Positions 4,554 to 64,000 of a DNA stretch of 64,000 nucleotides are shown here, one piece after another. The notes beneath the pieces were generated by a model, which ran no database searches, was not told the DNA's origin, and saw nothing but the letters and a program-made list of their open reading frames with translations. Origin of the DNA: Methanobacteriota archaeon. Its GTDB lineage: Archaea; Thermoplasmatota; Poseidoniia; Poseidoniales; Poseidoniaceae. The translations under genes were made by a program, and so were the position numbers. The DNA lies in the NCBI GenBank assembly GCA_038141355.1, contig JAYQHX010000002.1, positions 933,900-997,899 of the forward strand, read 5' to 3'. Positions within the stretch are counted from its first letter, which is position 1, and every line of letters starts with the position of its first letter.

Positions 4554-6341
4554 ATGATGAGATTCAGACCTACAGAGTACCCGATTCGGGCATATGGTAT
4601 CGAAGATTATCCTGCTAAATCAAAACAAGCAGCCGGAATAATGCTGATGATACACAATAATTTAGACCCAGAAGTTGCACAATTTCCTCATCAATTGATA
4701 ACCTACGGAGGAAATGGAGCCGTTTTTCAAAACTGGGCACAGTATAGGCTAACCATGAAATATTTGTCTGAAATGTCGAATGAACAAACACTTGTAATGT
4801 ATAGCGGCCACCCGATGGGACTATTCCCTTCCCATCCTAATTCTCCGAGAGTAATCGTGACCAATGGAATGGTGATACCAAACTATTCTAGTCAAGATGA
4901 TTACGATCGTATGAATGCATTGGGTGTAAGCCAATTTGGGCAGATGACTGCGGGCTCTTACATGTACATCGGCCCTCAGGGTATCGTACACGGCACTACA
5001 ATTACTATCCTCAATGCAGCTCGCATGCACGTTGGATCCACAAATTCTCTTTCTGGTGTGACATTCGTGACCTCAGGTCTTGGTGGTATGAGTGGTGCTC
5101 AAGCAAAAGCAGCAGTCATCGCAGGTGCTTCTAGTATAGTAAGCGAAATCAATCCTCATGCGGTTCATAAGCGACATTCTCAAGGTTGGTTATCTGTAAT
5201 AGCTGATTCCACTGACCATGCAATAGACTTGATGATAGAAAATCGGGATAATGGAAATGCGATATCTATTGGACATGTAGGCAACATTGTAGATTTATTA
5301 GAAAGGATGGTAGAGAGAAAGGTCAATGTTGACTTGTTATCTGACCAGACTAGCCTACATAATCCATGGCAGGGGGTATTATCCAGTCACAATTGATTTT
5401 GACACTGGAAAGGAAATGCTTGCTAACAATCCTGAACAATTCAAAATTGAGGTTCAAAAAACACTTAGAAGGCACGCAGATGCCGTTAATTCTCTCGTAG
5501 AGAGAGGAACTTACTTTTGGGATTATGGTAATGCATTCCTGTTAGAAGCATCTAGGGCTGGGGCAGACGTTATGAACGAAACGAACGATGGTTTTCGATA
5601 TCCAAGTTATGTTGAAGACATAATGGGCCCGATGTGTTTTGATTATGGATTTGGGCCATTTAGGTGGGTTTGTACGTCTGGTAATCCAGATGACCTCTCG
5701 GCAACCGATAGGATTGCAACTGAAATTCTAAGTGAACTATCAAAAAATTCCCCTATTGAAATTCAACAACAAATGGATGATAACATCCGCTGGATAAAGC
5801 AGGCAGAAGAAAATGGCATGGTAGTCGGAAGTCAGGCTAGAATTTTGTATGCTGATGCAATCGGTAGGGTTTCAATCGCTAAGGCGTTTAATGATGCGAT
5901 AAAGTCAGGAGATATATCTGCTCCAATTGTATTAGGTAGAGATCATCACGATGTATCTGGGACTGATTCTCCATTTAGAGAGACTGCTAATATCAAAGAT
6001 GGTTCCATGTTTACCGCAGATATGGCTGTGCAGAACTTTGTCGGAGATTCGTTCAGAGGTGCAACCTGGGTCAGCCTTCATAATGGCGGCGGCGTAGGAT
6101 GGGAGAAGTGATAAACGGAGGATTTGGTTTATTGATTGATGGTACCGAGCAAAGCGAAATCAATCTTACATCAATGCTTGATTGGGACGTTAATAATGGA
6201 ATTTCACGAAGAGCATGGGCGAGAAACGAAGGAGCGATTTTTGCGATAAAACGAGCTATGCAAAACAATACCAAATTGAAAGTGACTATTCCCGAAATCG
6301 CAGATGACAAATTGATTAACAGTATTTTTGAGGAGGATTGA
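4554..6341 (+). CDS. hutU: urocanate hydratase (urocanase), split into 3 ORFs by two frameshifts (~5372-5378 G5 run; ~6098-6106)
   Basis: Fragments 4347..5396, 5326..6111 and 6099..6341 align co-linearly to urocanase (NNLDPEVA, YGGNGAVFQNW, SGHPMG, QTS.H.P, GGGVGWGEVINGGFG, FAIKRAM). Probable true start is ATG 4554 (MMRFRPTEYPIRA). Confidence 0.8.
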
Positions 6342-11170: not shown

Positions 11171-11218
11171 TTTTTTATTAATCTTTTATCAATAAACATT
11201 TACCCAATATTCATTAGT

Positions 11219-11290
11219 GGGCTCGGCCAGAATTGAACTGGCGATCTTTGCCATGTCAAGGCAACGTCATAACCCCTAGACCACGAGCCC
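11219..11290 (-). tRNA. tRNA-Val (anticodon GAC)
   Basis: The reverse complement folds as a 72-nt cloverleaf: 7-bp acceptor stem GGGCUCG/CGAGCCC, U8, GG in the D-loop, anticodon stem UUGCC/GGCAA with loop UUGACAU, and T-arm GCCAG-UUCAAUU-CUGGC. CCA is not encoded. Confidence 0.85.
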
Positions 11291-48573: not shown

Positions 48574-48909
48574 AAAGTGGGAAGGCCAAAAGTGGACCCT
48601 CGTATCCATGAACCAAATCCACAGACTTTCTCCATCCCGTTACCCCACGGCACCCATGGCCCCAGGTAGGGCTGCTCCGTTCCCGGCCTGACCTGTTCCC
48701 CCGGTTATCCAATTCCCGACTCCTTCCGGCTTCGGTTCTTGACACCCGAGTCACGTGGGGGCGAGACATCAACGTCCGCCTGTGGGAATCCATGAACCGG
48801 CTGAGCCGCCTCTTGGCGTTCGGACCGCCATATGCGATTTGCGGATGAGGGCACGCAAACTCCCCTCCTATCCCATCAGGCCGTATAGCCTTACCATTTT
48901 GAACCCACC
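48574..48909 (-). ncRNA. signal recognition particle RNA (7S/SRP RNA)
   Basis: GC-rich (~58%) island in an AT-rich genome. The minus strand contains the conserved helix-8 core CAGGUCAGGCCGGGAACGGAGCAGCCCUACCUGG (compare E. coli 4.5S CAGGUCAGGUCCGGAAGGAAGCAGCC). The 5' GUGGG can pair with the 3' CCCAC, which is followed by an oligo-U terminator. An A/T-rich TATA-like element sits ~28 nt upstream. Confidence 0.8.
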
Positions 48910-53655: not shown

Positions 53656-53697
53656 ATTTGCATAACCTTGACATTTGATGAGATACTGGATGTAATA

Positions 53698-54894
53698 ATG
53701 TACCATGTGGTAATCATTGGAGCGGGTCCAGTCGGCGGGCGTCTCGCTACTGAATTATCGCTAAGAGGTATCAAAACTCTAATGATTGAAGAGCATTCTG
53801 AAATCGGAAGGCCATTTCAATGTGCTGGGTTGGTAAATCCTCCCGCAATGCAAGCAGTTGGTTTAGAGGATTCAATTCTTCAAAACATCAACGGAGCATT
53901 AATTCATTCACCATCTGGAATACAAGTCCCGGTAGGAAATGAAGAAACGATTAGAACACATGTAGTCTGCAGGAAGAAATTTGACCAAGGAGTCGTAAGA
54001 CAAGCAATGGAAGCAGGTGCACATCTTTGGCTAAATTCAAGGCCAGAAGATGCGATAATTAACAAGGAACACGTCGAATTGACAATAAATAGAGATGGTC
54101 AGATAAATACAATTCAAACTAAACTTCTAGTTGGTGCGGACGGGGCTCATTCCTGGACTCGAAGAAAGTTCAGATTGGGAGACCCAAGGAAATGATGATC
54201 GGTTTTCAGACCGATGTGCAGGGATTGAGTGGAAAAGATAACTGGTTAGAAATGTATACCGGCTCTGATATAGCTCCAGGATTTTTGCATGGGTCATCCC
54301 AACAGGAAATAATACACATAGGATTGGTATTTGGTCCAAGGCCAATTTACTCGATGGAAAGAGTATAGAAGAATGCTATCATTCACTCCTAAATCATCCG
54401 CTGTGGATAAATAGGTTCGAAGATGCAAAAGAGGTGGCAAGATATTGTGGACCTGTTCCTTGTGGTATGTTGAGAAAGCCATACAAAGATCGTGTCATGT
54501 TAATAGGAGATGCCGCCGGCATGGCTAAACCCACAACAGGTGGAGGAATTGGACCAGGATTTAGACAAGTTGAAGCAATTATCGAAAAATTATCTGTCTC
54601 AATAACTAAAGACAAATTGTCTCAATCTGACATAGCCGCGTTTGTAAACCATATAACAAACTGAGTAAGGAATTGGACAGAGCAAGAGCTTTACGGGATT
54701 TACTTGTCACAATTCCGAATGATAAAGAATTAGATTCTCATTTCGCCATGTTCAATAGACCTGAAATCCTAGAACTGATTAATGAAATCGGCGATATTGA
54801 ACATCCAGTCCCACTAGGAATGGCCCTATTAAAACAAGTTCCTGAATTTAGAAAACTAGCTCTAAAAGCCGGGGTAAAATTACTATTTGCGTGA
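53698..54894 (+). CDS. geranylgeranyl reductase family FAD-dependent oxidoreductase, broken by at least three frameshifts
   Basis: VVIIGAGPVGG FAD motif. Later segments (EMMIGFQTDV; FAWVIPTGNN; GDAAGMAKPTTGGGI; LSKELDRARALRDLL) are each in a different frame. Shift sites near 54188, 54283-54287 (T5 run) and 54660. Confidence 0.75.
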
Positions 54895-55981
54895 GTGATG
54901 ATATGGTAAAAATCACACATAGGATACGATATCCGCCATTTGAATCATCAAAAATTAATCCACAAAAACTACCTATTGCTGAGAATAATTTTGAACTCGA
55001 AGGCCCGGTTGTCCCAGCATTCAAACTGGGGTCAGATGATTCATGGTTGGTCGAACGAATTATAGAAGGTGATTATGAATATGATTCAAAATACCACGGT
55101 CCAGTTCCAACTGCAATTGAGAAACAAAGAACAGGTTGGTATATCCTGCCTAACCCAATTCATTCAAAAGCGAGGAATTTCATCAATATTTCAGTTATCA
55201 TATTGATGGTTGCACTATTTTATCTATTCACTGCTCCAATACAAAATTCCATGGGAATTCCGACATTTGGGACCGGGAAAATTCGTTTAGGATTACTCGA
55301 TTACCCGGTCCTTGCAATTGTTGTCGTACCTCTCCTTATAACTCCAATCATTCTCAGAATTGCTGCGAATTTATCAGACTTGAATCGACAAAAAGAATTC
55401 CTCTCAAATTCACCAGAAGCCCCAATATTCGAATTTGAAAAAGTTGAAAGTAATTCCAATCTCTCGGGCAAAGTTCGATTCAAAAAGGTTCCTGAAGGAA
55501 GCACCGAAATTAGACTAACATGGAGAGTTGGTGTTTTGCCTCCTGCAAGACATCGCTTGTTCTCAGCACTTGATTTGGACCCAAGCGGCCAACCCCTCCT
55601 GGTCTAACAACTCCATTGCCACATCATTGGGAAAAAGGGTTGGATGATGGAACAGGGATGGGAGAAGATGCCCCAATGGAACGACACGATGTTCCCGGAG
55701 GTATGTTTTTGCGCCCAATGAGAATAATGAGTATCGGTGGTTCGGAAAATATCCCGCTAGAAGGAGGTAAATTCGACTTATCTAAACCGGAAGGTGAATG
55801 GCCCGGAACCGTTTACGGTGATCTAGTAAGAATCCACTGGGAATGTATAATTACGTTTGAGAGAGAAAATAATCGACCGATAATGTGGGTACAACCATTA
55901 ATTGTTTCCCACTCTGAAAAAGAAATATCGAACCCTGAACTGAACATTCAAGATGGACGTACTGAGACTGATGTTTTTTAG
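54891..55981 (+). CDS. hypothetical membrane protein, split by a frameshift at a C4 run (55593-55596)
   Basis: ORFs 54891..55607 and 55616..55981 are in adjacent frames with an open overlap. No recognisable domain. Confidence 0.45.
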
Positions 55982-56015: not shown

Positions 56016-59000
56016 ATGAAGGGGCGCTCAGCACAAGCTATATTTTTGGCAGTACTCATGGTAATGTCTGGTTGTTTGTCTTCTGAAACACCTATCGAAG
56101 ATCGAAGATACTGACGAAAATGTCGACAACATACCTGTTTCTGCTTGGTTAGTAATGGACAATTATCTTCTCGAAACTAAATTAGGAGATATTGTTATGA
56201 TAACCGGTGATTTTGAGATTACTCCAGTAGGGACAGAATACTCAATTTTGTATGATATAATTTCTCCAACTGGGATTAGGGATATTGAATCATCAATCCT
56301 GGAAGATGGTCAAATTGTGAAAATCCTATTCTCACCTGATGAGCCAGGGGATTGGGCTGTTGTAGTGAAATTGTATGTAGGAGATATCTCTGACCCAATC
56401 ATAAGTCAATCAAATTTTTTCGTCAATATTCCCAATGAAGGTGACGTTATTCTGACTACAGATTCTAGAATTGAATTAGATGGAATACAAAATTTAGTTT
56501 TTTCAGGCACAGTGTCACATACAAATCTTGAATCTTGTGAAATTAATTTCAATAATAATCCATATCAGATTTCAGAAAACGGGGTTTTCTCAATTGATGC
56601 AGGTATAGTGGAAGAGAACACCGAACTTACAGTAAATGTTGAATGTGGACAATGGACAAAATCGTTTGATTCTAAAACCATTCAAGTTGTAATACTGAAC
56701 TTAGATGACTTAGATGGAGACGGGATTCAAAACGATGCAGACAAGTGCCCTAATGGCATGGGCAAAGATGAGGGTTGGACTTCAACATCTTCGACAGATT
56801 ACGATAGTGATGGATGCAATGATGAATCTGAAGATTTTGATGATGATGGTGACATGTTGCCAGATTTTGACGATGATTGTCTTTCGGAGTTAGGATGGAT
56901 TAGCAACCAAACATCAGATCATGATGCAGATGGTTGTTCGGATAATTTACAAGATGAAGATGACGATAATGATGGAGTATTGGATTTGTATGATGATTGT
57001 CCCCGAGGTGACCTTAATTGGGAATCTAAGTCTTACACTGATTGGGATGCTGATGGTTGTAGAGACTTATCGGAAGACCTTGATGATGATAACGATGGAG
57101 TTGATGATGTAGTTGACTCATGCTGGCGTGGTTATTCAAATTGGAACAGCATCTCTGAATTTGATTATGATGGCGATGGATGTTATGATTCAACAGAAGA
57201 TGAAGACGATGATGCTGACGGAGTAAATGATGTTAATGAAACAGGACAAACATTAGACTTATGTCCTCGTTCACCTCTGAATGCAACAGATGTAGATGAG
57301 AATGGATGCGATGCTACAGAAAGAGATACTGATTCGGATGGAGTTAGTGATGCAAATGACCAATGTCAAGGTACTCCTGCTGGCCTTGTCGTAAATTCAG
57401 TAGGCTGTGCTGATGTCGATGGTGATGGAGTATATTCGAATGTTGATAATTGCTCAGATACAGAGCAAAAATGGAGTGTCAATAGTGAGGGATGTGCTGT
57501 AAATCAGATACCAGTTCCGTGGAAGGAAACAGGGCATGGAACAAATAGAATGGATACTGTAGCCCATTTTTCATTACCGACATTAGACGGAACATGGTCA
57601 TTTAGAAACCAATGGAACGGTGAAGATGTGTATATTTTCTTGTTCAAATACACCGATTCATCTGGCAATAGTAATAACGCAGATTGGTCAAAGAATCCAG
57701 GCTCTATGATACGACAGTTACCAGATAATGCTCACCTTTTCTACGGATCGTTTGATAATTCATATTACAATGACGTTCAAGGAAGAAAAACTGCGGTTCA
57801 AAACGCACTAAACCCAAATGAGGAAATCAAATGGGCAAATCGAATACATTACATTGACCAAGATATGTCTACGGCAAGTGGTGGATTGGGTGACCTAATC
57901 AATAATTGGGGCTCCTTATACTATGGAATTGATAGATTTCAAAGGGGTAGAGAAATTGGTTCTATTTATGCTTGGACTAGCCAAACAAATGACATTACAC
58001 ATTGGGCTTATGAAGCTAGAATGTATAATTACGAATTTGATGTTGAAATCCGTGAAACCGACCCAAATATCGAAGTGGTCACAATTGTCGATGAACAATG
58101 GCATAATGGCGGATGGAGTTCTGGATATACGTCAACATATTCTAATGTCAACATAACACTTCCAGACAATCTAACAACTTATGACACACTTGAAGTCTAT
58201 CACGAACATGCTTGTGAGGACCGAAGAAATCGATATCAAAAATCAGACGGCACCTATGGTGGCTGTCATGAATGGGATTACCTGGCATACATGAAAATTT
58301 GTGATAGAGATAATTCTTCTAAATGTGGCACAGAATTTATGAGATGGATTACAACTTATGGAAGAGAAGGTCGGTGGATAACAGACATTTCACCATACTT
58401 ATTCATGCTACAATCTGATGATGTAAGGACATTCAAATATCAAGGTGCGAATAAGGGCACTATGACAATCAAATTACTATTCTCTGATTGGGGTAGTGGA
58501 GAAAGAAGTTTTGCAGGTGAACAAATTTTCACCGGTGGAGAATTCAATGGGCAGTACAATAATGAATCTAGATACAAACGTCAACATAACTTTACGGTCG
58601 ATGAAGAGTATTACAAAGTTAGGATTGTAGCTACAATTACGGGCCACGGTTTCAATCAAGACCAAGCAAATTGTGCAGAATTCTGTGACCACGAGCATCA
58701 CTACTATCTGAATAATTTCCATGCATATGAATGGCACCCGATCGTGCATGACAGTCAAGGTTGTGAAAAAGAAGTCGATAGAGGAGTTGTTGCAAATCAA
58801 TTTGGATCTTGGCCATTTGGAAGGGCTGGTTGGTGCGCCGGACAAGATGTTAAACAATGGACATATGAAATAACTCATTGGGTTGATAATTCAACCACCA
58901 ATAATATCGAATACAAGGGGTTGTTCAATGGCCAAGAATACGTTCCTCAGGATACGAATGGTGGAAGCAGACAAATAAGGGCAAATATTTGGCTAGTATG

Positions 59001-59016
59001 GTATGTTCAGAATTGA
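56016..59016 (+). CDS. lipoprotein with thrombospondin type-3-like Ca-binding repeats and a C-terminal PNGase F-like (peptide N-glycanase) domain; frameshift near 56100 separates the signal peptide
   Basis: ATG 56016 encodes MKGRSAQAIFLAVLMVMSGC (lipobox-like) but hits a stop. The main ORF frame (56155..59016) is open upstream through this region. It holds DxDxDGxxDxxDxCP repeats (aa ~190-450) and a C-terminal domain matching PNGase F motifs (CHEWDY.AYM, ITGHGFN...NCAEFCDHEH, GRAGWCAGQDV). Confidence 0.7.
56700..57480 (+). repeat. tandem coding repeats for TSP type-3-like Asp-rich calcium-binding motifs
   Basis: Imperfect DNA-level periodicity (gatgatgatga..., gatggtgatgg...) inside the 56016..59016 gene. 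Confidence 0.5.
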
Positions 59017-60179
59017 ATTGGAGGAGGAGCAGGTAGCTTATCGATAACCGTATTTGGTTCGGGGGTCGAAAGTAGTTCATACCTTGAATTTCTTCGAACC
59101 GGTTTGAAACCTGCTCTAACAATTGTGTCCTGTAATTCGAGTTCAGTTGCTTGAATTTTTCAGTCCCTGACGCAGAAACCACATTTTCTTCCATCATTGT
59201 TGAACCAGCATCGTCAGCACCCCCAATAGTGCCATCTGAGCCACATGTATTCCCATTGTGGGCCAAGATGCTTGGATATGAGAAATATTGTCGAAGAATA
59301 ATCTGCTAACTGCAACATGTCTAAGATATTCTGTTGGGCCTGCTCCTAATTCGAACTTATTTTGTCCCTTGTTTCTCTTGCCATAGGTATTATTTTCTAA
59401 CTGAACTGGCCAAGCAATGAATGAAGTAAAGCCTGTCGAGTGAGCAGACAAACTTTCATCCTGTAAATTTCTGATTCGAGCCATGTGCTCAACTCTGTTC
59501 TCAATCGATTCACCAAAGCCAAATACATTTGTAGCGCTAGTGACTAAACCCAATGATTGTGCTTCACCCATAACTTTCAGCCAATTGTCTGGATGCCCCT
59601 TTTTGGGGAAACATCCTTTCTAACCGATTCAACTAAGATTTCTGCACCTCCTCCTGGAAGACCATGCATTCCTGCATCTTTCAAATGACGAAGAACCTCA
59701 ATTGTAGTCAAACCTGTCACTTCTGCAATGCCCTCGATTTCAATAGGTGAAAAACAATCCAAATCGATAGTTGGGTGACGTTTCTTTAGTTCAGATAGTA
59801 GATTGGTGTAATAATCCATTCCAAGTTCTGGATTCACACCACCTTGCATTAGTATTCGAACTCCTTGTATTTCTTCTAGTTCTTTCACTCTTTGACTAAT
59901 TTCATCAATAGATTGTGTATAGGTTTCATCATGTCCAGGAGGCCGATAAAAAGAACAAAATTGGCAATTGATGGTACAGATATTTGTATAATTTATATTT
60001 CTGTCAATAAGATATGTCACATTTTTGTTTCCGTTGATTAGCAATCGTTTTTGATGTGCTGATTTTCTAAGAGCATGTAATGGAGCATTGCGATATAGTT
60101 CAACCGCTTCACCAACGGTAATTCTTCGATCATTCGAAGCGAGTTCTGAAAGTATTTCACTCCAGTTCATCACTACCAC
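58925..60179 (-). CDS. radical SAM enzyme of the MqnC/MqnE/CofH family, split into three ORFs by frameshifts (~59600 and ~59230)
   Basis: N-terminal NINYTNICTINCQFCSFYR cluster (59577..60179), middle GFGESIENRVEHMARIRNLQD (59194..59571), and C-terminal GGADDAGSTMMEENVVSASG (58925..59266). The homopolymer-rich junction is CCCCTTTTTGGGGAAA. Confidence 0.7.
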
Positions 60180-61601: not shown

Positions 61602-63089
61602 TCAGTTCCAATCATCATCATCCTCAGTCGCATCCGTAATTTCCTGCCTTTGTTTTTTAGTCCATTTTGGTAAATCACTAGCTGCTGGATTTCCTTTGCG
61701 AATGAAGAAGAAAATCATAATGCCACCAATTGCCACAAGCAAAATAATAGATGCAAGTAATGTGAGGCGATTATTATCTTCCGCAGATTCGATAGATTCT
61801 ACGACCAAATCAAAATTTTTACTATGAATTGCACCATCATCGTCTTCAATCTCTAATCGTATTGTATAAGTTCCCGGATCTAAATCAGCAATTGTATAAT
61901 TTTCATTTTCTGAAACCAAAGATTCATCCAAATACCATTTGTAGTTCATCGCTAATTTGTCAGATTCTGTATCGATTACTTCTGCACTCAATTCATGAGA
62001 TTCACCAGTTGTAGTTTCCCATTTTTCAGTTAGTGATACATTTAATCCATCAATTTCAAAATTGAACTCTGGAGGTAGGTTTTCGATTACAATTTCAACC
62101 GATTTAGATGCTGTTCTGCCTACTGAATCAAAGACATCTAGTTTTACTGTATAGGTTCCAGATGATTGAGGAACGAAGGTGTGGGTTAGTTTTTGAGTTC
62201 CTCCATTATCAATTACATTTAATGTTCCATCCGGCTGAGTGATGTACCACAGTGTCTGTAACTTATTGCCCCAAACTCCATCCCTTGAACCACTACCATC
62301 AATGAATAATTCTTCTCCTTCGTATGCTGTCAAAACTGCAATTAAATCAACGACAGGATCGGTTCTATCAACAAAAATTGTCGTTTCGATAATTGGAGAA
62401 TCCCGTAAAAACTCATCTTGAAGATAATACACAATGTTCCACCTTCCATCAAATAGATCTAATTCTGTAGCGTTTAGTGTGAAGGAATATGACTCTTCAT
62501 CCCAAGACATCGTCATGTCAGATGTATACGTCTGATTAGTACATGCTCCTTGGGGTGAATGACACCAACTGATTTTGATTTTCGATTGTTCGAGAATTCC
62601 AGTCGAAAGGTAGACATTACCGTGCAATTCTACGTTTTCGTCAAGATAAATATTTGATTCGTGTTTTGGAGATATTACTGGATTATGAGGCCCTTCTCCA
62701 ATGAATAAAATACGATTGAAGAAAATCTTGTCAAGTTCTAACGGCTGGTTTACCTCCAACCAGCAAGTACAGTTTAAACCCGTGACGTTTACTTCAATAT
62801 ACCATATCCAAATTCCTTCATCGACGGGAACAACAGAAGAAAAATAGTCTCCACTAACAACAACAGTCCATTCTTCATACGGGTCAGTGACATTGTAGAT
62901 TACCCATTCAGCATTTTGAGGATTAATGGTTGTTGAACCAGATATATTGAGGGTTTCATTAATCCATGTCCCATTAGGCATTGGACTAGTTATTTCCTCA
63001 TCTTCTGATATCGCAGAACCAGTTTCAACAATAGTCAAACAAATTATCGCAAGTGTTAGAGTAATACTAACTCGCAATAAACTCTTCAT
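61602..63089 (-). CDS. secreted surface protein with C-terminal TM anchor and acidic tail (PKD/Ig-like domains likely)
   Basis: Signal peptide, many NxS/T sequons, C-terminal LLASIILLVAIGGIMIFFFI helix then a charged tail. Confidence 0.6.
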   Translation of the reverse strand: MKSLLRVSITLTLAIICLTIVETGSAISEDEEITSPMPNGTWINETLNISGSTTINPQNAEWVIYNVTDPYEEWTVVVSGDYFSSVVPVDEGIWIWYIEVNVTGLNCTCWLEVNQPLELDKIFFNRILFIGEGPHNPVISPKHESNIYLDENVELHGNVYLSTGILEQSKIKISWCHSPQGACTNQTYTSDMTMSWDEESYSFTLNATELDLFDGRWNIVYYLQDEFLRDSPIIETTIFVDRTDPVVDLIAVLTAYEGEELFIDGSGSRDGVWGNKLQTLWYITQPDGTLNVIDNGGTQKLTHTFVPQSSGTYTVKLDVFDSVGRTASKSVEIVIENLPPEFNFEIDGLNVSLTEKWETTTGESHELSAEVIDTESDKLAMNYKWYLDESLVSENENYTIADLDPGTYTIRLEIEDDDGAIHSKNFDLVVESIESAEDNNRLTLLASIILLVAIGGIMIFFFIRKGNPAASDLPKWTKKQRQEITDATEDDDDWN

Positions 63090-63092
63090 TTA

Positions 63093-64000
63093 CTACTCCT
63101 CAAATGCATTACAGAGTTGTCCTTGTGTTGGGAAACTGTTAATGTCACGAGGATTGGTGTCCCACTTGTACTCACAATAGTTGATGTGACCGTCACCATC
63201 TGTATCGACCATTCTGTCAGCGGAATCATATGGGTCGAAATTGAAGTAATATTCCCAACCTGTGGCCATTCCATCCTCATCGTGGTCTTGATAGTAAACT
63301 TCTGGGCCATCATTCCAGTCGTCACCGTCTGTGTCGTTCTTAACCGGATTTGTACCATTAACAAATTCTTCATAACTAGTGTAATTTTCTAAGTTATCAT
63401 AGAATGCTTTACCATCAGGCGTATCAGGATTAATGTGGCAATTACTAGATGATGGATCATCATAAGAAGGACAATATTTAGCAATCAAACCAGAGCGATT
63501 CAAACCATCATTATCTGGGTCTTCCATTCCATCATCTATACCATCACCATCAGAGTCTTTCAACGATGGGTCCATGATACCACGAGCCCCGCTTGCTCCG
63601 CCTGTTGTATTGTCATATAGACCTAAGTTGAGTGCCTGTTCGGAGTATTTAACCTCCCATCCATCAGGTAGCAAATCGCCATCTGTATCATCATCTACGG
63701 GATTAGTATTCCATCTATCTGGAGCTTCTGCACCATTTGCTAGAGTGTCGTTATCAATATCATAAGTATCATCTTTCAACGAATTTTCTGATGGGTCTAA
63801 GGCCCATCTGCCATTACATCCCCCACATAGTGGATTTGATGGTACAATGAAATTAGTCAAATTCATCTCATGTACTTCATATTTCTTCTCAAGGATAAAT
63901 CCACCAAGCCAATTCTTCCACATGTAGCCACCTGATTCTAAACCACATTCGACCATTGAGTCACAACCTGGTGGAAGCCACAAATCTGTAGCAACCCACA
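63093..64000 (-). CDS. secreted protein with TSP type-3-like DxDxDG calcium-binding repeats; N-terminus lies beyond the window end
   Basis: DTDGDG, DSDGDGIDDGMEDPDNDG motifs. The ORF has no stop before the window edge. Confidence 0.55.
   Translation of the reverse strand, partial: WVATDLWLPPGCDSMVECGLESGGYMWKNWLGGFILEKKYEVHEMNLTNFIVPSNPLCGGCNGRWALDPSENSLKDDTYDIDNDTLANGAEAPDRWNTNPVDDDTDGDLLPDGWEVKYSEQALNLGLYDNTTGGASGARGIMDPSLKDSDGDGIDDGMEDPDNDGLNRSGLIAKYCPSYDDPSSSNCHINPDTPDGKAFYDNLENYTSYEEFVNGTNPVKNDTDGDDWNDGPEVYYQDHDEDGMATGWEYYFNFDPYDSADRMVDTDGDGHINYCEYKWDTNPRDINSFPTQGQLCNAFEE

Follow-up and report, generated by a model that had tools for sequence, protein, structure and literature searches.

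A predicted archaeal surface lipoprotein joining a TSP3-like calcium-binding array to a PNGase F-type domain in Poseidoniales

Overall architecture of the encoded protein

Positions 56016-59016 of a 64,000-nucleotide stretch of DNA from a Poseidoniaceae archaeon (assembly GCA_038141355.1, contig JAYQHX010000002.1; the whole stretch is called the window here) carry a gene whose intact form is predicted to encode a cell-surface lipoprotein. The head of this protein is a candidate peptide-N4-(N-acetyl-beta-glucosaminyl)asparagine amidase (PNGase) of the PNGase F/Ngly2 type that would act on external N-glycoproteins, an assignment which, in our judgement, has slightly more for it than against it. 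The first-pass annotation of this DNA had described an archaeal lipoprotein in which a TSP3-like array is joined to a PNGase F-type domain, and this description is supported by the sequence, profile searches, the predicted structure, and conservation. The order of the domains is a lipobox signal, an acidic linker, two immunoglobulin-like (Ig-like) domains, approximately 260 amino acids (aa) of DxDxDG repeats, a domain resembling thioredoxin (Tx-like domain), a linker helix, and two jelly rolls. In the following list and throughout the text, residues are numbered according to the 953-aa open reading frame (ORF) present in the window, as were the residues ~620-953 named by the first-pass annotation; adding 44 gives the position in the repaired 997-aa protein.

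56016-56075, + strand: predicted Sec-type lipoprotein signal peptide MKGRSAQAIFLAVLMVMSGC with the lipobox Cys20 (frame analysis)
56094-56109, + strand: perfect 7-bp tandem duplication, ATCGAAG x2.3 (TRF)
56155-59016, + strand: main ORF of the window copy, which starts at its first ATG and encodes 953 aa but no signal peptide
56173-56694, + strand: two tandem Ig-like beta-sandwich domains, residues 7-91 and 99-180 (AF2 model, Foldseek)
56701-57474, + strand: TSP3-like calcium-binding repeat array, residues 183-440 (motif count, profile matches)
57571-58059, + strand: Tx-like domain without CxxC, residues 473-600, and long linker helix, residues 616-635
58072-58491, + strand: PNGase F-type N-terminal jelly roll, residues 640-779 (profile and structure, no PF09112 match)
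58501-59010, + strand: PNGase F-type C-terminal jelly roll, residues 783-952 (PF09113, profile, and structure)

The two C-terminal domains

The motif strings CHEWDYLAYM, EFMRWITTYGREGRW, ITGHGFN, NCAEFCDHEH, and GRAGWCAGQDV, on which the first-pass annotation was based, are all present in the translation of 56155-59016 (+ strand), and profile-to-sequence alignment places them opposite CDEWDRYANVYV, SGWGHA, GCAEWCF, and DRAGWCPGMAV of PNGase F, in agreement with the correspondence that had been claimed. The similarity is far beyond chance. The Pfam family PF09113 (N-glycanase_C) scored 73.7 bits at residues 801-939 (cut-off 25, E 1.7e-20), and a phmmer search found the structure of zebrafish Ngly2 (PDB 9lwg) as the best solved relative by sequence (E 2.3e-39, 35% identity, 259 aligned residues). 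The search with both Pfam N-glycanase families that had been suggested as a check was successful only for this C-terminal domain; PF09112 (N-glycanase_N) gave no match even at E<=10 on the isolated segment, and the identity of the N-terminal jelly roll comes only from the family profile and the predicted structure.

The family profile, constructed from 106 homologs including bacterial ones, aligned to Ngly2 with an E value of 4.6e-103 in two stretches, which correspond to the Tx-like domain (Ngly2 residues 56-202) and the PNGase domain (residues 343-687). The same profile aligned to PNGase F (1PNF, 1PGS, and 3PMS) with E ~1e-19 over residues 4-276, spanning both jelly rolls. The AF2 model of residues 440-953 had a pLDDT of 95 and a pTM of 0.92, and its top Foldseek match was again 9lwg (E 1.7e-35, TMq 0.80), followed by PNGase F (1pgs, TMt 0.73) and, at lower ranks, PNGase F-II, 7zgn, and the Bacteroides putative PNGases. 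In the model, two eight-stranded jelly rolls lie side by side, which is the arrangement that defines the PNGase F superfamily (EC 3.5.1.52), and the last two domains are thus predicted to form together the PNGase F fold. Structure prediction, which the first-pass annotation had put forward as a check, accordingly bears out its proposal.

Kinship with PNGase F is therefore evident from the profile, the predicted structure, and the residues described below, but the closest characterized relative by sequence comparison is zebrafish Ngly2, a proven acid PNGase that had long been sought and was reported in 2025 (PMC12753239), and not the PNGase F of Bacteroidota. The Tx-like domain, whose thioredoxin fold occupies only approximately 165 residues of the model, contains no cysteine at all, and a redox role of this domain was ruled out on this ground.

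Active site

The N-terminal jelly roll holds the segment C704-HEW707-D708-Y709, in which the codon of the catalytic Asp lies at 58276-58278, and the C-terminal jelly roll holds the G-H831-G motif, the NCAE842FC motif (codon of the catalytic Glu, 58678-58680), and the GR890AGW893C motif. In the alignment, D708, E842, and R890 coincide with the catalytic Asp60, Glu206, and Arg248 of PNGase F, and so the Asp, Glu, and Arg whose absence would have spoken against the first-pass annotation are present. The equivalence extends to W707-D708 (W59-D60 in PNGase F), Y735 (Y85), and W893 (W251). No variation was seen at W707, D708, E842, R890, and W893 among the 68 full-length sequences aligned, which comprise 67 Poseidoniales orthologs and the window protein, and all six residues, including Y735, are invariant across the 106-sequence alignment. 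The cysteines of the three disulfides equivalent to those of PNGase F are also invariant, as are those of one extra pair that is found in Ngly2 as well. Among the chitobiose-binding residues of PNGase F (W59, R61, Y85, E118, W120, W191, and W251), W59, Y85, and W251 are kept. Judging from these alignments, the catalytic machinery is intact, and the glycan-recognition surface appears to be the protein's own.

Predicted lipid anchor and stalk

The lipobox is VMSGC in the window, where it is out of frame with the body, and LLSGC or LAGC in the orthologs (consensus, [LVI][ASTVI][GAS]C). Its Cys is kept in 67 of the 68 aligned sequences, and the N-termini of the orthologs all follow the pattern M..K/R..hydrophobic..[LM]SGC or LAGC. 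The lipobox ahead of the array, which the first-pass annotation had reported, is in frame in approximately 67 orthologs and in P0122, the protein encoded by the metagenome contig L083 described below, but it is not in frame in the window copy. Proteins with a lipobox are widespread among Euryarchaeota (PMC12462473); a scan of the window for others gave none that was convincing.

The two Ig-like domains were found in the AF2 model ma3fcc9202527, with a pLDDT of ~87 for domain 2 and ~60 for domain 1. Foldseek returned generic tandem-Ig matches (E ~1e-8) for this region, and Pfam gave no match to it. When the N-terminal 185 aa were used to search for homologs, nothing but near-identical fragments came up; these were functionally uninformative but provided the intact allele.

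The repeat array contains 12 DxDx[DN]G motifs (residues 185-425), 25.6% Asp, approximately 16 Cys, and four clear units of ~41 aa, each of which holds two calcium motifs (GW.S...D.D.DGC.D..ED.DDD.DG..D..D.C); the number of calcium motifs per ortholog ranges from 8 to 12. Tandem DxDxDGxxDxxD motifs with flanking cysteines, by which TSP3 repeats are recognized, are therefore found in the array. The profile matches are specific but weak: Pfam TSP_3 scored 20.7 bits on the isolated array against a cut-off of 25 (E 3.4e-4, 5 stretches), NCBIfam throspo3_MtsC gave an E value of 1.9e-6, far under its cut-off, TSP3_bac gave no match on the array, and the TSP3 repeats of an OmpA-family protein (5wtl) aligned with E 1e-4. 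The label of the first-pass annotation holds for the motifs and the composition but not for strict Pfam membership, and, on this sequence evidence, "TSP3-like calcium-binding array" seems a fair description. The array is probably a calcium-stiffened stalk, an adhesion module, or both. The eight invariant Cys of the enzyme module and the ~16 of the array, together with the calcium-binding motifs, fit an extracellular protein.

Distribution and conservation

A scan of one genome per species revealed 122 stretches encoding relatives. The best 80 of the 122 are all from Poseidoniales (Marine Group II, MGII), mostly Poseidoniaceae, and share 60-89% identity in the C-terminal module, so that the search for orthologs among marine archaea proposed at the outset was fruitful. 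Approximately 67 of the 80 are single ORFs of 974-1020 aa with an in-frame lipobox. Measured as mean identity to the orthologs, conservation is lowest in the fast-evolving Ig domains (27%) and increases through the repeats (60%) and the Tx-like domain (67%) to the PNGase domain (73%), a gradient consistent with purifying selection acting most strongly on the predicted enzyme head.

Four more distant Poseidoniales homologs (P0022, P0017, P0020, and P0023; P0017 is labelled Thalassarchaeaceae) are ~45-47% identical. They carry an insertion, GIDDDGDGSTDRYGG, which resembles a DxDxDG motif and lies immediately ahead of the catalytic CHEWD, and a C-terminal extension of ~50 aa that the Poseidoniaceae form does not have. 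Their anchoring or regulation may be different.

Outside the archaea, the Tx-like plus PNGase core is found in Myxococcota and in many unnamed metagenome proteins with 28-38% identity. When 1.84 billion cluster representatives were scanned in full with HMMER, 2457 matched at E<=1e-3 and 557 (50%-identity clusters) at E<=1e-30, most of which span both the Tx-like and PNGase modules. The N-terminal modules vary by lineage, and EGF-like repeats are one example.

Some archaeal members have already been named "peptide-N-glycosidase F-related protein" by NCBI. No paper dealing with archaeal members turned up in a literature search on PNGase or N-glycanase in MGII, Poseidoniales, or PF09113, in keeping with the statement of the first-pass annotation that archaeal PNGases are essentially uncharacterized, and the papers on Ngly2 and on PNGase L do not mention archaea.

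The 7-bp duplication

The first-pass annotation had treated 56016-59016 as one gene. This is incorrect for the window copy: the interval is 3001 nt long, and a check of length and frame showed that it is not a single ORF. The signal peptide is encoded in a frame different from that of the body, and its frame ends at the TGA at 56112-56114. The shift between the two frames is attributable to the 7-bp duplication at 56094-56109. In silico removal of one 7-bp unit joins the signal peptide and the body into a single ORF of 997 aa. Across ~650 nt, the window is matched almost identically by L083, a short metagenome contig that lacks exactly the same 7 bp and is one ORF in this region. Its protein, P0122, reads ...SGCLSSETPIEDTDENVDN... 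across the junction without the duplication and runs as MKGRSAQAIFLAVLMVMSGCLSSETPIEDTDENVDN... directly into the body in a single frame. From approximately position 652 (window ~56442 onward), L083 is wholly unlike the window, a divergence that is probably a chimeric or mis-assembled contig end.

As written, the window copy would yield a signal-less and presumably inactive protein. The duplication reflects either a mistake in assembly or sequencing or a knockout at the strain level, with intact alleles present in the same population. That the gene is a true pseudogene in this organism we consider unlikely, though the chance is not negligible; this explanation concerns this copy only and can be combined with whichever reading of the intact gene is preferred. 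It draws on the separation of the signal peptide from the body by the frameshift and on the nature of the lesion, since a 7-bp tandem duplication is unlike the usual homopolymer-type sequencing error. The near-identical intact allele on L083 argues against it, as does the 2.86-kb body, which is free of any further stop or shift and shares 77% identity with the closest intact ortholog.

The surrounding sequence also bears on this point. Compared with intact orthologs, seven frameshifts were found in 53668-55981 and 59010-60179, several of them at or near homopolymer runs: three in the geranylgeranyl reductase (GGR) gene, one (near 55595) in the gene of the conserved protein hyp359, and three in the CofH/MqnE-like radical SAM gene. 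There are none in the topoisomerase gene, the M24 peptidase gene, or the PNGase body, and a comparison of homopolymer density did not account for this uneven spread. The seven frameshifts, all within 6 kb, break presumably essential neighbours (GGR and CofH-like), which suggests that the stretch is probably of poor sequence quality and weighs further against a genuine loss of the gene.

The same gene is also split in the assemblies of close relatives: in L001, a scaffold gap of Ns with duplicated flanks lies at 5137-5246, and L002, which had been polished with pilon, has a frameshift at ~8001. This repeat-rich gene seems to be hard to assemble.

Genomic neighbourhood

The order of the genes is topoisomerase, GGR, hyp359, and the PNGase gene, followed on the other strand by the CofH-like gene, an M24 aminopeptidase gene, a PKD protein gene, and a large TSP3 protein gene. 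This arrangement recurs in 65-77 of 82 loci, and at least 80 Poseidoniales species genomes have the PNGase gene in this fixed neighbourhood. The neighbourhood had been described as one of peptidases and surface proteins. In fact, the neighbours are mostly housekeeping genes (topoisomerase, GGR, the membrane protein hyp359, and the CofH-like radical SAM enzyme), and the genes of the M24, PKD, and large TSP3 proteins follow at a greater distance downstream, on the opposite strand. The M24 aminopeptidase P has no evident signal peptide and is probably cytoplasmic. This conserved housekeeping context lends the PNGase gene no functional support. A glycan or peptide utilization locus was ruled out by the housekeeping neighbours and by their constant order in most of the 82 loci, and a recent horizontal acquisition or genomic island was ruled out by the GC content, which matches the rest of the window, and by the fixed synteny. 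The gene is an old, vertically inherited one in a housekeeping region, and both it and its synteny are conserved throughout the family Poseidoniaceae.

Two neighbours are described here for their own sake. The gene of hyp359 (54891-55981, + strand) encodes a conserved membrane protein of ~359 aa without a Pfam match, ends 35 nt upstream of the PNGase gene on the same strand, and lies directly upstream of it in 73 of the 82 loci. At 61602-63983 (- strand, running past the window end), a PKD-domain protein (495 aa) adjoins a TSP3_bac protein of ~1031 aa, of which the window holds the C-terminal part. With 86% identity to its L001 ortholog, this TSP3_bac protein exceeds its neighbours in conservation, and it is a second large calcium-repeat surface protein beside the locus.

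Two RNA genes were found elsewhere in the window:

48575-48878, - strand: Archaea_SRP RNA (116.5 bits)
11217-11290, - strand: tRNA-Val(GAC)

The Archaea_SRP RNA and the closest protein relatives, all of which are from Poseidoniales, show that the window is archaeal.

Proposed function and alternatives

If the head is an active PNGase, the following course of events may be envisaged. The protein would be exported by the Sec pathway and then lipid-anchored at Cys20, and the Ig and calcium-loaded repeat modules would keep the head off the membrane in seawater (~10 mM Ca2+). In external N-glycoproteins or glycopeptides, most plausibly those from phytoplankton, the head would hydrolyse the amide bond between Asn and GlcNAc, and release of the glycan would leave the polypeptide open to the peptidases on which these protein-degrading archaea depend. 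Poseidoniales are described as proteolytic heterotrophs with thrombospondin-type adhesion genes, for which a particle- and bloom-associated lifestyle has been proposed (PMC6461757), and external deglycosylation would fit this lifestyle. The broader proposal, that all Poseidoniaceae carry a lipid-anchored, long-stalked Ngly2-type PNGase stripping N-glycans from phytoplankton glycoproteins, seems to us evenly balanced.

Several observations weigh against this assignment. No glycosidase, transporter, or secreted peptidase that could link the gene with foraging on glycoproteins is encoded in the neighbourhood, the window copy is frameshifted, and no published enzyme assay was found for any prokaryotic member of the Tx-like plus PNGase subfamily. 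Glycan-contact residues are changed relative to PNGase F (R61 to Tyr709, W191 to His831, and E118 to Gln763), W120 of PNGase F is without an evident counterpart, and Trp480, which is needed by Ngly2, falls opposite Gly764 in an uncertainly aligned loop. These changes mean that neither specificity nor pH optimum can be transferred from the known enzymes. As to the latter, His422 and His546 of Ngly2 have been proposed to underlie its acidic pH optimum (PMC12753239); H831 corresponds to the kept H546, and His422 is replaced by Tyr709.

An active PNGase could also serve the archaeon itself, by trimming or recycling its own N-glycosylated surface proteins (S-layer and archaella) rather than by foraging. 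A vertically inherited, syntenic core gene amid housekeeping genes in 65-77 of 82 loci, away from any nutrient-acquisition island, would suit such a role; the tether would place the enzyme on the same surface as the cell's own glycoproteins, and the substrate-recognition loop, which PNGase F and Ngly2 do not share, would allow for a glycan of non-eukaryotic type. We nevertheless regard this use as rather improbable. The stalk of ~440 residues (two Ig domains and the repeats) would push the head away from the cell surface, the equivalents of the chitobiose-contacting W59, D60, Y85, R248, and W251 are kept, and no archaeal self-deglycosylation system is known, which we count against it.

A PNGase-fold head that binds glycans without catalysis, as a lectin or adhesin by which the protein attaches to particles or algal cells, is very unlikely: it would accord with the replacement of several substrate-binding residues of PNGase F, with the Ig-like and calcium-binding modules typical of adhesins, and with the interpretation of Poseidoniales TSP3-type proteins as adhesion factors (PMC6461757), but neither the 106-sequence alignment nor the 67 archaeal orthologs show any variation at the catalytic Asp and Glu or at the DRAGWC Arg and Trp, a retention not expected of a pure binding module, and the nearest characterized relative, Ngly2, is a proven enzyme (PMC12753239).

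Poseidoniaceae are among the most abundant archaea of the surface ocean, and the PNGases studied so far are from bacteria, plants, fungi, and animals. If the assignment as a foraging PNGase is correct, the protein would be the first archaeal PNGase and would represent an unrecognized step in the remineralization of marine protein and glycans. The Tx-like plus PNGase enzyme recently found to make free glycans in fish eggs would then belong to a family widespread in marine prokaryotes, raising the question of inter-domain transfer. Activity would also provide a concrete mechanism by which uncultured protein-degrading archaea handle glycosylated substrates, and it would extend the Ngly2 family to prokaryotes living at seawater pH, with a bearing on the determinants of the pH optimum in this fold. 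Use as a reagent enzyme is a further possibility.

Comparison with known systems

Ngly2 and the archaeal protein have in common a Tx-like domain that is devoid of CxxC and precedes the PNGase domain, the linker helix, and the change of W191 to His. The protease-associated (PA) insert in the Tx-like domain of Ngly2, which forms a peptide-binding cleft (PMC12753239), is absent from the archaeal protein, and the alignment jumps from Ngly2 residue 202 to 343. Ngly2 is targeted to the lysosome and works at pH 3.5-4.5, whereas the archaeal protein carries a lipobox and a ~440-aa stalk (Ig and TSP3-like) and would presumably function in seawater at ~pH 8. Ngly2 is active with a similarly partial set of the PNGase F chitobiose-binding residues.

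The PNGase F of Elizabethkingia meningoseptica (1PNG/1PNF/1PGS) is ~19% identical to the archaeal protein, in which its R61 is Tyr, its W191 is His, and E118 and W120 are not conserved. Small and secreted, PNGase F consists of a single module and has no Tx-like domain, stalk, or lipid anchor. PNGase F-II (4R4X/4R4Z), 7zgn, and the Bacteroides putative PNGase F proteins (3KS7 and 4QHB) are clearly more distant than Ngly2 and PNGase F, and PNGase F-II has a bowl-like domain, not a thioredoxin fold, as its N-terminal module.

The TSP3 repeats represented by PF02412, PF18884, and 5wtl share the DxDxDGxxDxxDxC motifs and the paired cysteines with the array, to which their matches are weak but specific. 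The bacterial "peptide-N-glycosidase F-related proteins" (Myxococcota and others) have a Tx-like plus PNGase core of ~510 aa that aligns end to end with 28-38% identity, and the archaeal clade is set apart from them by the lipobox and the Ig and TSP3-like stalk. The archaeal protein is thus not a new type of system but a surface-stalked archaeal addition to the known PNGase F superfamily, with the sub-architecture of the Ngly2 type.

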